Assembly: GCA_963707635.1 (NCBI GenBank)
Contig: OY970173.1
Span: 1,792,001 to 1,856,000, forward strand
Source: Candidatus Latescibacterota bacterium
Lineage (GTDB): Bacteria > Krumholzibacteriota > Krumholzibacteriia > WVZY01 > JAKEHA01
Length of the DNA: 64,000 nucleotides
Direction: 5' to 3'
Below the pieces are notes generated by a model. That model was given only the letters and a program-made list of their open reading frames with translations, was not told where the DNA came from and ran no database searches. The position numbers and the translations under genes are program-made. Each line of letters starts with the position of its first letter. Positions within the stretch are counted from its first letter, which is position 1. Of the stretch, positions 27,490 through 34,409 are shown piece by piece.

Positions 27490-28716
27490 TCATGCGGACG
27501 CCACCAACGCCACCTTGACCGCGCGACTCCCGCGCCGGCCCAGCGCGAGGGCGAGCCCGTGGTCGAAGTCCGCCAGCGGCACGACGTGCGAAACTAGCGC
27601 TTCCAGTGCGCGGCCGGGTTCACTCGCCAGCAGGTTCGCCGCGGCCTGAAACGCTCCGCGCTTCGCCCCGCCGTGGGTCGCGTCGTGGTAGCAGAGACTC
27701 CCGTGCAGCGAGATCTCCTTGAGCCACAAAGGTGTCCAATCGACCCGGGGTAGACGCGCGACGTTGGCGAGCAGCGTGATCGATCCCCCGGCGCGCGTGA
27801 AACGAAGCGCGTCGCCCACGGCGGCGTCGCCGCCCACGCACACGAAGGTGGCGTCGAACCCGCCGACGTGGATGCGTGGGCCCAGGATCGGTTTCAGCAG
27901 CCGTCCGCCCACGATGCGCGAGAGGGCGGGGACGTAGTCGCCGTCGCGCTGCATCACGACACGATGGGCGCCGAGACGCTCCGCGTGCGTTTTTTGAAAT
28001 TGGTGGCGAGCAAGGACCGTCACCTCCGCGTCGGAAAGCATCCGCAGCGCGGCGAGGGTCAAGAGACCGACCGACCCGGCGCCGATCACCAGCACGCGCG
28101 AACCCGGCGCCGGCGGCCGATCGAGCACCGGGGAGACCGCACACGCGAACGGTTCGGTGAGCAGGGCCAGACGATCCGACACGTGGTCGGGGACGCGGAC
28201 GACCTGCTCCTCGTGCGCGACGTACTGCTCGCCCCAGCTTCCGCCGAGTCCGCGGGTGGTTCCCAGCAGCATGCCGGGCGCGATGGCGCCGTCGGTGAAG
28301 TGCTCGCAGCGCGACGGATGGCCGCCCGCGCAGTGGGGGCACGGCGGGTCGATCCCGCGCACCGCGCACGCGAGCAGGGGATTCACAACCACCCGCTCCC
28401 CACGGGTGACGCGTGTTACGGCGGCGCCGGTTCCAATCACCGTGCCGACGTTTTCGTGCCCGATCACGAACGGAAACGACGAGAACGGCGAGGTGGAGGG
28501 CGACACGCGCAGCCGCACCAGGTTGAGGTCGCTCCCGCATATGCCGCCCATGCGGGTGGCCACGCGCACCCAATGCTCGCCCGGGAGCGCCGGCGGCTCC
28601 ACGTCGCGAAGTTGCGTGCACCGGTAGGCACCGGTCAGCGCGCGCGGCGTGATTGCCCCAGCGGCGCGCGTCAGCAGGTAGCGCGGGATGGCGCCGTCGA
28701 AGACGACCGCTTTCAT
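27490..28716 (-). CDS. Zinc-dependent medium-chain dehydrogenase/reductase
   Basis: GICGSD, GHE, Cys cluster for structural Zn, GAGSVG. Confidence 0.88.
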   Translation of the reverse strand: MKAVVFDGAIPRYLLTRAAGAITPRALTGAYRCTQLRDVEPPALPGEHWVRVATRMGGICGSDLNLVRLRVSPSTSPFSSFPFVIGHENVGTVIGTGAAVTRVTRGERVVVNPLLACAVRGIDPPCPHCAGGHPSRCEHFTDGAIAPGMLLGTTRGLGGSWGEQYVAHEEQVVRVPDHVSDRLALLTEPFACAVSPVLDRPPAPGSRVLVIGAGSVGLLTLAALRMLSDAEVTVLARHQFQKTHAERLGAHRVVMQRDGDYVPALSRIVGGRLLKPILGPRIHVGGFDATFVCVGGDAAVGDALRFTRAGGSITLLANVARLPRVDWTPLWLKEISLHGSLCYHDATHGGAKRGAFQAAANLLASEPGRALEALVSHVVPLADFDHGLALALGRRGSRAVKVALVASA

Positions 28717-29639
28717 CCCCCGGCTCCCGTCGCGGAGCCCGGCGGCGCGCAGACGCGCAGCGCGTTGGGGACCGCCTCGATCACCAGCGGCGACACACTG
28801 TCCACGACCTCGCCGTCCACTTCGTAGCGCAGCGGTCCACCGGTGTCGACGGTGAACGACGACGCCTGGCGCATCACCACGTGGTCGAGTCCTTCGTGCG
28901 TGCCCTTCGACACGATCGAGAACAGGCGCGCGCGTGTGAGCGGGCCCGCGTCGCGGATCGCCACCGCGTCGAGGCGCCCGTCGGAGAGACTCGCGCGCGG
29001 GGCGATATGGAACGACCCCCCGAAGTAGTTCGCGTTGCTGATCGTGAGCATGAGCACGTCGAGCGGCATCGGCGTCTCGCCGTCGGCGGCGAGCGTCACC
29101 CGCGTTCCCGGAAAACGGAACAGCTGGCGCAGCGCGCAGAATCGGTAGAGAAGGTCGCCGCGAAGCAGCGGCGTGCGCGCCGCGTCGTCGATCACGGCGA
29201 TGTCGAAGCCGAGGCCGACCACGTTCAAGAAATGCCGGCCGGCGACGCGGCCGACGTCGATGGTGGTGGTGGCGCGGTCCGCGATCGCGCGCACCACCTC
29301 GTCGATGCGCTCGTGGCGGATGCCGAGCGATTTGCCGAAGTCGTTGCCGGTGCCGGCGGGGAGCAGGCCGAGGATCACGTCGCGGCGCCCGCTGCGAACG
29401 ATCCGGTCGGCGGCGACACTCCAGGTGCCGTCCCCGCCGACGGCGACGATGCGCTCTGCGCCGCCGGCGATCGCGCGGTCGAGGAGACCGACTTCATCGC
29501 CGGCCCGCTTCGTGTAGACGGGTTCGACCTCGCCCAGGTGGCGCTGCAGCAGGCTGACGTAGTCGCGCAGCCGGCCGGCGCGGCGGCCGCGACCCGCCGC
29601 CGGGTTGACGAGTACGAACGTGGATCCGCTCCGGGACAT
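28713..29639 (-). CDS. Diacylglycerol/sphingosine/ceramide kinase family (DAGK_cat)
   Basis: NPAAGRG, VGGDGT, LPAGTGNDF, GFD, YFGG, VDGE. Confidence 0.9.
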   Translation of the reverse strand: MSRSGSTFVLVNPAAGRGRRAGRLRDYVSLLQRHLGEVEPVYTKRAGDEVGLLDRAIAGGAERIVAVGGDGTWSVAADRIVRSGRRDVILGLLPAGTGNDFGKSLGIRHERIDEVVRAIADRATTTIDVGRVAGRHFLNVVGLGFDIAVIDDAARTPLLRGDLLYRFCALRQLFRFPGTRVTLAADGETPMPLDVLMLTISNANYFGGSFHIAPRASLSDGRLDAVAIRDAGPLTRARLFSIVSKGTHEGLDHVVMRQASSFTVDTGGPLRYEVDGEVVDSVSPLVIEAVPNALRVCAPPGSATGAGG

Positions 29640-29662
29640 GGGAACGGTGACGGTGGTGAGCG

Positions 29663-32630: not shown

Positions 32631-33678
32631 CATGAAACCGGCCGACGAATCTCGCGCCGTGGTGCGGCCGCTGCCGCGCGCGGCATCGACGCCGCACGAC
32701 CCGGTTCCTCCCGAGGTGCGCGACATCGTGGATCGGCTGCGCGACGCCTGCGGCCGCAACCTCGTCGGACTCGTTTTCTTCGGGTCGCGGCTGCTCGGCA
32801 CCTCCCCGGGGGAGGACAGCGCAGCGGACCTGTTCGTCGTGGTCGAGAACTACCTGCGCTTCTACGAGGCGATCGGATCGCGGCTGCCGACCGCGCGTCA
32901 CAGCGGCATCATGGCGGCGCTCAACCGCGTGTTGCCCCCCAACATCATTTACCTGAACGATCCCGGCGGGCTGCGCGCGGGTGCCAAGTGTTTCGTGGTG
33001 AGCGAGGGCGATCTGGCCCTGGCGCTCTCCCCGGATGCGAAGGACCACTTCTTCCGCGGCCGTCTCTCGCAGCGCGTGCACGTGGTGTACGCGCGCTCGG
33101 AGCGCGACCGCCAGGCGTTCGACCTGCGCATCGACGCGACCCGCCGTCTCGCGCTGGACTGGGTGCCGCTCTACCTGCCGGACACGTTCGGCGTGCTCGA
33201 CTTCTGCCGCCGCATGATGGAGGTTTCCTACGCCGGCGAGATCCGTCCGGAGGCGCGCTCGCGCGTGCACGACGTCTATCAATCGCAGGTGAGCTTCTTC
33301 CGGCTCGTGTACGGGCGCGTGCTGCAGGAGGGGGTCCGCGATGGGACGCTGGTGGCGGACGGCGACCGCTACCGGCTGGCGAAGCGGCCGTCGTGGCGCG
33401 AGCGCCGGCGCTGGCGCGCGTTCTTCCAGCGCTCGAAGGCGCGCGCGACGCTGCGCTGGTTCAAGTACATGCTGACCTTCGACGACTGGCTCGACTACAT
33501 CGTGCGCAAGATCGAACGGCGATCCGGCATGCGCATCGAGCTGACCAAGGCCGAGCGCCGCTTCCCGGTGATCCTGCTCTGGCCGAAGGCGATCCGGGTG
33601 ATCCGCGCGATGCGCTCGGCGGAAGTGCGCGCGGCCGCGCGCGGCCCGGCGCCGGTCACCGACCGGGGCGACGCGTGA
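32620..33678 (+). CDS. Nucleotidyltransferase-fold protein, Tam41-like putative lipid cytidylyltransferase
   Basis: FFGS...SAADLFVVVENY Pol-beta-type motif; FFRGRLSQRV and VSYAGEIR resemble Tam41/Mmp37 blocks as I recall them. Confidence 0.65.
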   Translation: MIDNMKPADESRAVVRPLPRAASTPHDPVPPEVRDIVDRLRDACGRNLVGLVFFGSRLLGTSPGEDSAADLFVVVENYLRFYEAIGSRLPTARHSGIMAALNRVLPPNIIYLNDPGGLRAGAKCFVVSEGDLALALSPDAKDHFFRGRLSQRVHVVYARSERDRQAFDLRIDATRRLALDWVPLYLPDTFGVLDFCRRMMEVSYAGEIRPEARSRVHDVYQSQVSFFRLVYGRVLQEGVRDGTLVADGDRYRLAKRPSWRERRRWRAFFQRSKARATLRWFKYMLTFDDWLDYIVRKIERRSGMRIELTKAERRFPVILLWPKAIRVIRAMRSAEVRAAARGPAPVTDRGDA

Positions 33679-34409
33679 GGCGCGAGCTGGCGGTGCTCGC
33701 GGGCGTGGTCGGGTTCGCGCTGGCGACCATGCTGGTCTACCGCCTGCGCCCCGCGAGCCGGACGACGGCCGACCTGACCGGACGCGGCGGGTCGTTCGTC
33801 CTCGGATTCTGGGTGCGCAACTGGTTCTACTGGCTGATTCGACCCGTCACCCGCGCCTCCCTGGCGCTGGGATTGACGCCCCTCTTCTATAATATGTTCG
33901 CCGTGGTGTGCGGCGTGGGCAGCATGCTCGGTTACGCGACCGGGCACTTGCCGACCGCCGGCTGGCTGGTGTTCGTGAGCGGGATCGCCGACGTGCTCGA
34001 CGGGGAGGTGGCCCGCGCGACGCACTCCGCGGATTCGCGCGGCGCGTTCCTCGATTCCACCCTGGACCGGTTCACCGAGTTCTTCGCGTTTGCGGGAATC
34101 GCGTATTCGTCCGCGCCGGGGTGGCGGACGCTGGCGGTTGTGGTGGCGCTCGGCGGATCGCTGCTCGTGAGCTATACCCGCGCGCGCGGCGAGAGCCTGG
34201 GGGTGCTGTGCAAGGTCGGGGTGATGCAGCGCGCGGAGCGGATGCTGCTGCTCGGGCTGGGGTCCATCCTTGATCCCGCCCTCTCGGCCCGGGCCGGGTG
34301 GGGGGAGGGGACGATCGTGGCCATCGTCGTCGTCGTTATCGCGGTCGGGACGGTGTGGACATCCGTATACCGAACGGTCTGGATCGCGCGGGCGCTCAAG
34401 GGGCGCTAG
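33675..34409 (+). CDS. CDP-alcohol phosphatidyltransferase
   Basis: DVLDGEVARATHSADSRGAFLDSTLDR signature; VSYTRARGE; GTGA overlap with the upstream gene. Confidence 0.92.
   Translation: MRRELAVLAGVVGFALATMLVYRLRPASRTTADLTGRGGSFVLGFWVRNWFYWLIRPVTRASLALGLTPLFYNMFAVVCGVGSMLGYATGHLPTAGWLVFVSGIADVLDGEVARATHSADSRGAFLDSTLDRFTEFFAFAGIAYSSAPGWRTLAVVVALGGSLLVSYTRARGESLGVLCKVGVMQRAERMLLLGLGSILDPALSARAGWGEGTIVAIVVVVIAVGTVWTSVYRTVWIARALKGR

Follow-up and report, generated by a model that had tools for sequence, protein, structure and literature searches.

A conserved divergent gene cluster of Krumholzibacteriota and its predicted role in the synthesis of a sphingolipid-type lipid

Surveys call bacterial sphingolipid producers from spt, bCerS and cerR together, and a study of the Black Sea describes Spt-like genes without nearby bCerS or CerR and suggests that non-homologous enzymes replace them (PMC11334938). 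What such replacements might be is the question raised by a locus of Candidatus Latescibacterota bacterium, a member of Krumholzibacteriota whose genome is a single contig of 3.2 Mb (96.4% complete). The stretch analysed, referred to as the window, comprises 64,000 nucleotides (GCA_963707635.1, contig OY970173.1, positions 1,792,001 to 1,856,000), and at window positions 27490 to 34409 it carries seven closely packed genes. Six of them are treated here as the core: an alpha-oxoamine synthase (AOS), a protein with the acetoacetate decarboxylase (ADC) fold, a YegS-type lipid kinase, a PlsC-like acyltransferase, a Tam41-like nucleotidyltransferase and a CDP-alcohol phosphotransferase resembling phosphatidylinositol-phosphate synthase (PIPS). 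The seventh encodes a zinc-dependent medium-chain dehydrogenase/reductase (MDR). The six core genes are one conserved unit. From their families and motifs we predict, with a probability of roughly one half, that the cluster builds an inositol-phosphoceramide-type lipid in which the PlsC-like enzyme replaces the ceramide synthase bCerS. The cluster supplies concrete candidates for the replacement of bCerS and CerR.

Six genes form one conserved unit

The AOS, ADC-fold, kinase and MDR genes lie on the minus strand and the PlsC-like, Tam41-like and PIPS-like genes on the plus strand, and adjacent genes overlap by 4-10 nt or are spaced by 1-23 nt, the ADC gene overlapping the AOS stop by 10 nt. 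The 122 nt between the two divergent ATGs (31687..31808) are presumed to be a shared promoter region, and no sigma-70-like promoter or consensus site was found within this gap. Open reading frames and Pfam matches recovered all seven genes, their strands and the divergent gap as an earlier note on this DNA had described them. That note had also proposed a single lipid pathway around the Spt-like enzyme and named conservation of the cluster as a check; the linkage of the core six across several phyla, including a colinear operon in another lineage, supports the proposal.

Among relatives, the Tam41-like gene is present in 16/16 genomes of the genus, 0/6 in the family's other genera, 7/13 in the sister family and 25/41 overall, and the divergent layout is retained in 18 regions as far as contigs extend. 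A wider scan of GTDB genomes by the ADC gene matched 315 stretches, the best 80 of which provide the GTDB locus counts given throughout. These loci include members of Krumholzibacteriota, Gemmatimonadota, Eisenbacteria and some Gammaproteobacteria, and they hold the kinase in 76/80, the PlsC-like gene in 75/80, the Tam41-like gene in 74/80, the PIPS-like gene in 64/80 (many of the loci lacking it are cut by contig ends) and AOS in 59/80. All six core genes occur together in 45/80, and the five other than AOS in a further 18/80. For 20 of the loci from which AOS is absent the rest of the genome was examined, and an orthologue of ~60% identity or more lies elsewhere in 17 of these genomes, while in 3 none was found. 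Each of the 18 AOS copies found outside the cluster (16 relocated, 2 extra) has a second ADC paralogue after it, so that when the cluster splits an ADC paralogue accompanies both halves.

A separate scan of metagenomes by more distant ADC-like proteins yielded 491 stretches, and the best 80 of these form the metagenome set. In this lineage the genes are colinear in the order SDR-AOS-ADC-kinase-PlsC-Tam41-PIPS, where SDR is a short-chain dehydrogenase/reductase, and this order matches that of the reactions proposed below. AOS is directly upstream of ADC in all 64 loci with room for it, the kinase directly downstream of ADC in 65/66, the SDR precedes AOS in 34/36, and the PlsC-like gene sits between kinase and Tam41-like gene in 25/35. 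Retention of the Tam41-like gene across relatives, together with the same gene order in other phyla, argues that the arrangement is not due to chance.

The oxoamine synthase and its ADC-fold partner

The AOS (30316..31686, minus strand, 456 aa; Pfam Aminotran_1_2 above cut-off) is a pyridoxal phosphate (PLP) enzyme whose best solved relative is the Spt of S. multivorum, at 288 bits. It carries the motif GTFSKS with K302, the stacking histidine H198, and S141, Y112 and R425; GTFSK302 and H198 are invariant in 35 aligned AOS rows, as expected of an AOS fold with its PLP lysine and stacking histidine. G-T-F-S-K-S has been termed characteristic of Spt (PMC10196870). The enzyme has Ser at the Ser81 position, where Kbl rows have Val, and its clade is further marked by an invariant GSP loop and a conserved N-terminal extension. 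None of the NCBIfam Spt models reached its cut-off (361/640 bits for the CFB-type Spt, 343/500 and 281/670), and the bCerS-adjacent Spts of the same phylum, at 575-600 bits on the CFB model, are likewise below it. The scores on bioF (370/426 bits), Kbl (347/460) and gly_Cac_T_rel (370 bits) are also all below cut-off.

A careful tree of 42 rows, from which 17 near-redundant or long-branch rows of an earlier quick tree were dropped and to which 6 were added, places the AOS in a clade of its own (100/100), with canonical Spt separate (98/98, 12 rows) and BioF plus Kbl together without it (96/95). Reference labels came from record annotation, NCBIfam or synteny, and those for PigH and RkpG are ones that we take from gene context. 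The quick tree had joined AOS with Spt, PigH and RkpG at 96, a node that the careful tree does not resolve, so no grouping with Spt is claimed. The second AOS of the genome groups with Kbl (100/100). The description "SPT-like" in the earlier note thus holds for the fold, the catalytic residues and the separation from BioF and Kbl, which the phylogeny suggested there bears out, and does not extend to membership of the canonical Spt clade or to the Spt family cut-offs. Since the AOS lies outside that clade and below all those cut-offs, its specificity for serine and a long chain is a prediction. The enzyme, predicted to condense an amino acid with an acyl thioester, likely works like Spt but is not classed as one, and in our judgement it quite probably provides the sphingoid-type base on which the downstream enzymes act.

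No gene is linked to AOS more tightly than that of the ADC-fold protein (29663..30325, minus strand, 220 aa; Pfam ADC above cut-off), which the earlier note had left unexplained. It follows every AOS copy with a readable flank except one, and outside the cluster the association is 18/18; an ADC copy also remains with the kinase when the cluster splits. The structural model (predicted local confidence, pLDDT, 93) matches the ADC 3bh2 with a Z-score of 22, and across the ADC-like superfamily (ADC, MppR, Sbi00515 and Swit_4259) Z-scores of 19-22 were obtained with a root-mean-square deviation of ~3 Å over ~200 residues at 11-15% identity. The protein shares this fold and differs from the superfamily in having no Schiff-base lysine and in its fixed link to AOS. 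In the segment ERWHLPH, His103 aligns with the lysine of WGYPK in the ADC-family protein P0348 (76 Pfam bits), WGxPK being what we take to be the Schiff-base lysine motif of ADC. The position is variable among distant members (His, Tyr, Ser, Asn and others), while 35 close rows share E35, H38, E60, H174, E177, H186 and E204 without exception. Most likely the protein binds AOS or its keto product, or serves as a carrier for the keto base, and performs no Schiff-base chemistry. A sequence-profile search of the PDB returned no relative of it, no ADC-like gene was found in the plasmid collection, and a search of the ESM Atlas gave generic ADC and MDR clusters only. Apparent ADC fusions (P0257, P0264, P0292 and others) were set aside, as they seem to stem from frameshifted reads that span the AOS, ADC and kinase genes. 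At one locus of a single-contig genome (L022 of G027, 12498-13073) the ADC match breaks off after ~147 codons, and no kinase gene is present in the region; the cluster there may be decaying or rearranged.

Predicted steps from keto base to headgroup

Read in the simplest way that gives every core gene a part, the cluster would apply glycerophospholipid-type logic to a sphingoid base. The AOS would condense L-serine with a long-chain acyl thioester to 3-keto-sphinganine, possibly held by the ADC-fold protein, and an exchangeable reductase would then reduce the 3-keto group. This is the weakest step of the scheme. The MDR (27490..28716, minus strand, 408 aa; Pfam ADH_N and ADH_zinc_N above cut-off) has a catalytic zinc site at C60/H87/E88, structural cysteines C117/C126/C129/C137, and a basic R237 without an acid after the second Rossmann strand, a pattern that we take to be of the NADP type. 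Its best match is Tdh, at 93 bits against a cut-off of 380. The earlier suggestion that the MDR could be the 3-keto reductase survives only in part: the enzyme is still an NADPH-dependent candidate, if a rather doubtful one, but it was rejected as a core gene (14/80 GTDB loci, absent from the sister family), and an unlinked SDR is an equally good candidate. This SDR of the studied genome (C1:590629-591420) shares 44-48% identity with the SDR that precedes AOS in the metagenome operons, a protein that comes closest, among NCBIfam families, to mycolate reductase without reaching the cut-off. Two genome sets were compared, in which kin are not independent: a phylum sample of 151 genomes, 19 of them with the ADC gene, and 50 other cluster genomes outside it. 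The SDR (E<=1e-40) occurs in 14/19 ADC-bearing and 17/132 other genomes of the phylum sample, and among the 50 other cluster genomes in 6/13 without an MDR homologue and 3/37 with one. The distribution fits an exchangeable reductase and does not name it. In four other cluster genomes the SDR lies 5-9 kb from INO1. In genome G089 (L242:7246-12278) the neighbours of a 43% MDR homologue are a HAD-IB hydrolase and a multidomain reductase/acyl-CoA-ligase gene encoding 1453 aa, a setting reminiscent of myxobacterial ether-lipid genes.

The reduced base would next be phosphorylated by the kinase (28713..29639, minus strand, 308 aa; Pfam DAGK_cat and YegS_C above cut-off). The enzyme scores 155 bits on TIGR00147 (cut-off 118.65), and its GGDGT and GTGND motifs are conserved in 58 rows. 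It had been likened to the ceramide kinase CpgB and placed after acylation; the first comparison does not stand, since it is of the YegS/BmrU type and scores 9 bits against the CpgB-position protein of Roseomonas and 118 bits against a Prevotella kinase adjacent to spt. (Comparisons with CpgA, CpgB and CpgC used the Roseomonas proteins at these positions.) The enzyme is predicted to be a 1-kinase of the long-chain base, or of ceramide. As to the order, we tentatively place the kinase before acylation. The base 1-phosphate would mimic lysophosphatidic acid: it would present a phosphate at C1, a free nucleophile at C2 and the tail beyond C3. There is a precedent for the kinase step in DhSphK1 of Porphyromonas gingivalis, which phosphorylates free dihydrosphingosine (PMC9045371). 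Orthology with DhSphK1 is not established, as the comparison was with the Prevotella kinase beside a CFB-type spt (118 bits), on which the genome's second DAGK-family kinase scores higher (137).

The PlsC-like protein (31809..32630, plus strand, 273 aa; Pfam Acyltransferase PF01553, 57 bits, above cut-off) would acylate the C2 amine to give ceramide-1-phosphate. Its HX4D and PEGxR motifs are intact: across 45 rows N86-H87-Q88-S89, E161-G162 and R164 are invariant and D92 nearly so, and the model has the PlsC fold (TM-score 0.70 to the PlsC of T. maritima). On AGP_acyltrn (TIGR00530) it reaches 44 of 103 bits, with a best E value of 3e-15 among 45 members, and it is far from every named subfamily and represents a distinct one. 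The conserved arginine of PlsC binds the substrate phosphate, and retention of this residue favours a phosphorylated acceptor. We regard N-acylation of the base 1-phosphate by this enzyme as an even call.

Conversion to CDP-ceramide would fall to the Tam41-like enzyme (32632..33678, plus strand, 348 aa; Tam41_Mmp37 PF09139 at 23.4 bits, cut-off 24, E 4.5e-5), in which the GS...SAxD motif is conserved. The profile hidden Markov model (HMM) built from the cluster proteins matches, over its length and with E 3e-37, the Roseomonas protein at the CpgC position, whose gene is flanked by the spt region and the kinase gene. This homology agrees with the earlier suggestion of a counterpart to the CDP chemistry encoded near spt, and the enzyme is predicted to be a CDP-ceramide synthase. 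The last core enzyme (33675..34409, plus strand, 244 aa; Pfam CDP-OH_P_transf above cut-off) would transfer inositol-1-phosphate, made by the genome's INO1, to yield inositol-phosphoceramide phosphate, from which a phosphatase encoded outside the cluster would form the final lipid. Its best NCBIfam matches are archaetidylinositol-phosphate synthase and PIPS (132/180 and 94/170 bits, below cut-off), its best PDB matches are PIPS, and the CDP-alcohol phosphotransferase signature is present, with DxxDG..AR...G.xxD...D and SY.RAR conserved. It scores 22 bits against the CpgA-position protein and 130 bits against the genome's own PIPS-like paralogue. Inositol-phosphate transfer is the activity predicted from these matches, and we lean toward inositol as the headgroup. 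INO1 co-occurrence was dropped as evidence for it. The gene is nearly universal in the phylum (141/151 genomes, and 61/64 cluster genomes), which suggests that inositol lipids are a general trait there. A housekeeping PlsC, CdsA, three other CDP-alcohol phosphotransferases (one PIPS-like), a second DAGK, Kbl and INO1 are encoded elsewhere in the genome; with PlsC, CdsA and PIPS functions supplied there, the cluster paralogues are spare for a special lipid.

The headgroup half of the cluster is a variant of known Cpg logic. The spt-cpgABC genes of Caulobacter crescentus, which make the phosphosphingolipids CPG and CPG2, likewise combine an Spt-like enzyme with a kinase of the DAGK family, a protein with a Tam41 domain and a CDP-alcohol phosphotransferase; the Tam41 domain has been noted in CpgC (CC_1161/CCNA_01219) (PMC9393093; PMC11324152; 10.1101/2023.05.01.538943). 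In Caulobacter, cpgC mutants retain ceramide phosphate and lose CPG (PMC9393093). Our cluster differs in lacking bCerS, CerR, AcpR and an acyl-acyl carrier protein (ACP) synthetase, in adding the PlsC-like enzyme, the ADC-fold protein and an MDR or SDR, and in its AOS outside the canonical Spt clade, its kinase unlike CpgB and its phosphotransferase of PIPS rather than CpgA type. The canonical Spt-bCerS-CerR pathway likewise starts from an alpha-oxoamine synthase (PMC11334938, PMC11324152); bCerS and CerR are absent from this cluster. Bacteroides thetaiotaomicron BT_1522-1526 shares the predicted end product, phosphoinositol dihydroceramide, and uses MIPS and PIPS; there PIPS makes the diacylglycerol lipid PIP-DAG and an AUR1-like enzyme moves the head to ceramide, whereas in the scheme proposed here CDP-ceramide itself would be the substrate of the PIPS-like enzyme (PMC9246714). 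In Pseudomonas, the SgaABC system of polyketide synthase (PKS), AOS and SDR has a non-canonical AOS that makes sphinganines without bCerS, and its SDR has been proposed to reduce 3-keto-sphinganine (PMC12134224), which recalls the SDR that precedes AOS in the metagenome operons. No PKS is present in our cluster. RkpG-type AOS, from the locus that we take to be the RkpAGH type of Sinorhizobium, is on another branch, and SgaABC/RkpAGH-type loci are without ADC, PlsC, Tam41 and PIPS as far as seen.

Ceramide synthase, alternative readings and neighbouring genes

Probes for bCerS and CerR were taken by synteny from three annotated plasmid clusters, and their identity rests on that synteny. Neither a 3-sequence nor a 23-sequence HMM found bCerS in this genome, while the same probe gave E<1e-80 in 64/151 genomes of the phylum sample; among the 19 ADC-bearing genomes two matched at E<1e-80, a third weakly (2e-26), and 16 not at all, so the two systems rarely co-occur in this sample. 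For CerR several extended SDRs score 120-172 bits; that at C1:379823 aligns partly (26-37% identity, weaker than most CerR-CerR pairs), and the top scorer on a 17-row CerR HMM is C1:2406427. Because extended SDRs are generic these scores are not decisive, and they give no clear CerR orthologue. Genes for bCerS, CerR or ACP were found in none of the 80 GTDB loci, and the 80 metagenome loci gave no bCerS or ACP match and one 20-bit match to the CerR HMM, which is the upstream SDR. The earlier note, which recognised no bCerS, CerR or ACP at the locus, was borne out there, and the genome search that it proposed gave no bCerS.

Canonical operons are nonetheless at home in the phylum. Spt-bCerS-cerR stand together in 8/9 regions of Krumholzibacteriota (L194-L202) and bCerS-cerR in the ninth, and bCerS occurs in 55/61 genomes of one family and 7/9 of another. 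Strict mutual exclusion of bCerS and the cluster was discarded: it is loose in the phylum sample (2/19) and fails outside it (24/50). Some of the bCerS genes in that second set are within separate canonical clusters and others stand alone. Lone bCerS-like genes without spt or cerR within ~7 kb were seen in Longimicrobiales (L203-L205, L213), in G183 and G184 at ~45-50 kb from the cluster AOS.

Several observations weigh against the proposed lipid and its enzymes. On the side of the backbone, the AOS falls outside the clade of bCerS/CerR-linked Spts and has Pro at the Spt Arg82 position, GTFSKS or GTFSKA is found in non-Spt rows too, and approximately unbiased (AU) tests reject neither AOS with canonical Spt (p 0.21) nor AOS with BioF (p 0.075). 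The MDR was found in 0/9 sister-family genomes, 5 of which carry the cluster, and its 35-40% homologues in Gemmatimonadota adjoin SUF and thiolase-like genes, unlinked to the cluster. The cluster is split in 20/80 GTDB loci examined for this, in which AOS is absent and ADC and mostly the other genes remain together. At the acylation step, the PlsC-like gene is missing in 10/35 metagenome loci that hold both kinase and Tam41-like gene, the characterised families that resemble the protein are O-acyltransferases, including OlsA, and we know of no proven N-acyltransferase in PF01553. A bCerS match is present in 24/50 cluster genomes outside the phylum sample, 23 at E<=1e-40; G183 and G184 have no AOS at E<=1e-50 other than that of the cluster, and as their bCerS gene is isolated, bCerS could be the N-acyltransferase in these two genomes. 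For the headgroup, INO1 co-occurrence does not discriminate, and direct addition of glycerate by CpgC has been proposed (Zik et al.), so that CDP activation by the CpgC family is a prediction of ours.

The points at the acylation step are those expected if the backbone is sphingoid and the PlsC-like protein is an optional O-acyltransferase, the product being a lyso (free-amine) base-phosphoinositol or an O-acylated lipid that bCerS N-acylates where present. Free-base phosphoglycerol sphingolipids have in fact been proposed for Pseudomonas SgaAB (PMC12134224). An optional role is difficult to square with the PlsC-like gene in 75/80 GTDB loci and its place between kinase and Tam41-like gene in the colinear operons, and 16 of the 19 phylum cluster genomes have no bCerS match to supply the amide. 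The ceramide phosphate downstream of which Caulobacter CpgC works is moreover an N-acylated lipid (PMC9393093). On balance we consider an O-acylated or lyso product unlikely.

A different departure would leave the later kinase, acylation and CDP steps in place and change the backbone: the AOS-ADC pair might use another amino acid, or release a 2-amino-3-keto acid, which the ADC-fold protein would then, with no Schiff base, decarboxylate, dehydrate or isomerise to give a new class of aminolipid. The separate deep clade of the AOS with its invariant GSP loop and N-terminal extension would suit such a shift, a change of amino acid within an Spt-related branch is exemplified by the CFAT enzymes (PMC13692747), the ADC fold is one used for beta-keto-acid chemistry and retains an invariant Glu/His set in the close rows, and no canonical Spt locus examined has an ADC-fold partner. 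The residues of the AOS PLP site nevertheless match Spt, the variable Schiff-base lysine position is what is expected of a non-catalytic site, and the lone bCerS genes of G183 and G184 suggest a bCerS-compatible product. Such a backbone appears rather improbable; should it nevertheless differ from sphinganine, the cluster would still indicate a membrane lipid that has yet to be described.

The cluster might also combine two separate functions: kinase, PlsC-like, Tam41-like and PIPS-like enzymes would make another phosphatidylinositol built on glycerol, perhaps of the ether type, and the AOS-ADC pair would serve some other purpose. All four downstream families have glycerolipid activities, AOS is apart from them in 20/80 GTDB loci, and the MDR homologue of G089 sits beside the reductase/acyl-CoA-ligase multidomain gene and the HAD hydrolase. 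Yet the genome already has a full housekeeping set for glycerolipids, both halves keep an ADC paralogue when they split, one lineage has a single colinear operon, and the sole homologue of the Tam41-like protein seen in an annotated record sits in a sphingolipid cluster; two functions would be at long odds. That the AOS is a housekeeping enzyme of the BioF/Kbl type and the MDR a threonine dehydrogenase among chance lipid neighbours is scarcely credible and was rejected, for although bioF and gly_Cac_T_rel (370 bits each) outscore CFB Spt (361), the MDR best matches Tdh and the AU test alone does not exclude BioF, these scores are all below cut-off, the tree separates the AOS from a distinct Kbl-grouping enzyme in the genome, no biotin genes were recognised beside it (the HMMs used did not test for them), and the MDR is absent from 66/80 loci.

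The inositol-phosphoceramide pathway, if true, would mean a ceramide synthase from a third protein family and a direct CDP-ceramide route that would explain the role of Caulobacter CpgC; it would also give a role to an uncharacterised ADC-fold family and add lineages with hardly any cultured representatives, or none, to those that make sphingolipids. A bolder proposition, which we consider less likely than not, is that PlsC-fold N-acylation of sphinganine-1-phosphate is a third route to ceramide that evolved independently and that the AOS clade and the lysine-less ADC-fold subunit form a two-component enzyme, spread over Gemmatimonadota, Krumholzibacteriota, Eisenbacteria, some Gammaproteobacteria and at least one further lineage scored as non-producers by spt/bCerS/cerR surveys. 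In literature searches whose coverage of subscription papers was poor, no paper was found that describes this gene cluster or links Krumholzibacteriota to sphingolipids; nothing was found on CDP-ceramide or on Tam41 together with serine palmitoyltransferase and PlsC, the work found on Gemmatimonadota with sphingolipids and serine palmitoyltransferase was unrelated, and among the matches listed none joins acetoacetate decarboxylase with sphingolipid or oxoamine synthase. The backbone half (a new AOS clade, an ADC-fold partner, a PlsC-like enzyme and no bCerS) was thus not found in print in these searches.

Other genes lie near the cluster or are related to its members. To its left in the window are a PAP2 phosphatase, a GT4 glycosyltransferase, a HerA-like ATPase and an OmpA/TSP3 protein (20823-25039, plus strand, and 26391-27347, minus strand), and a 344-aa open reading frame with a lipoprotein-like N-terminus and no Pfam match (25145-26179, minus strand). 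The PAP2 gene is present in 2 and the GT4 gene in 1 of the genus regions examined, and the PAP2 enzyme could remove the inositol phosphate. Among Bacteroidales plasmids, L193:7818-9053 and related Bacteroides/Phocaeicola plasmids (43-95 kb) carry a stand-alone Spt-related AOS beside a TetR regulator, on a long branch and with no family cut-off reached. An unassigned radical SAM family with the motif RCNLxCxYCxEYD adjoins the cluster in 20/80 metagenome and 4/80 GTDB loci (e.g., L315:4711-5742; L033:12177-13277). In colinear operons its gene lies upstream of the SDR, and in the sister family it follows on the far side of the PIPS-like gene; it has no homologue in this genome, and the protein could modify the lipid chain. 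Near the PIPS-like gene of the sister family there is, finally, a small hydrophobic protein with the motif LYTIPSHMFxSPFxHE (L033:11594-12196, L034:7358-7951, L022:7713-8426 and L024:11172-11921), with no NCBIfam match at 1e-8, which in three of these loci stands beside the radical SAM gene.

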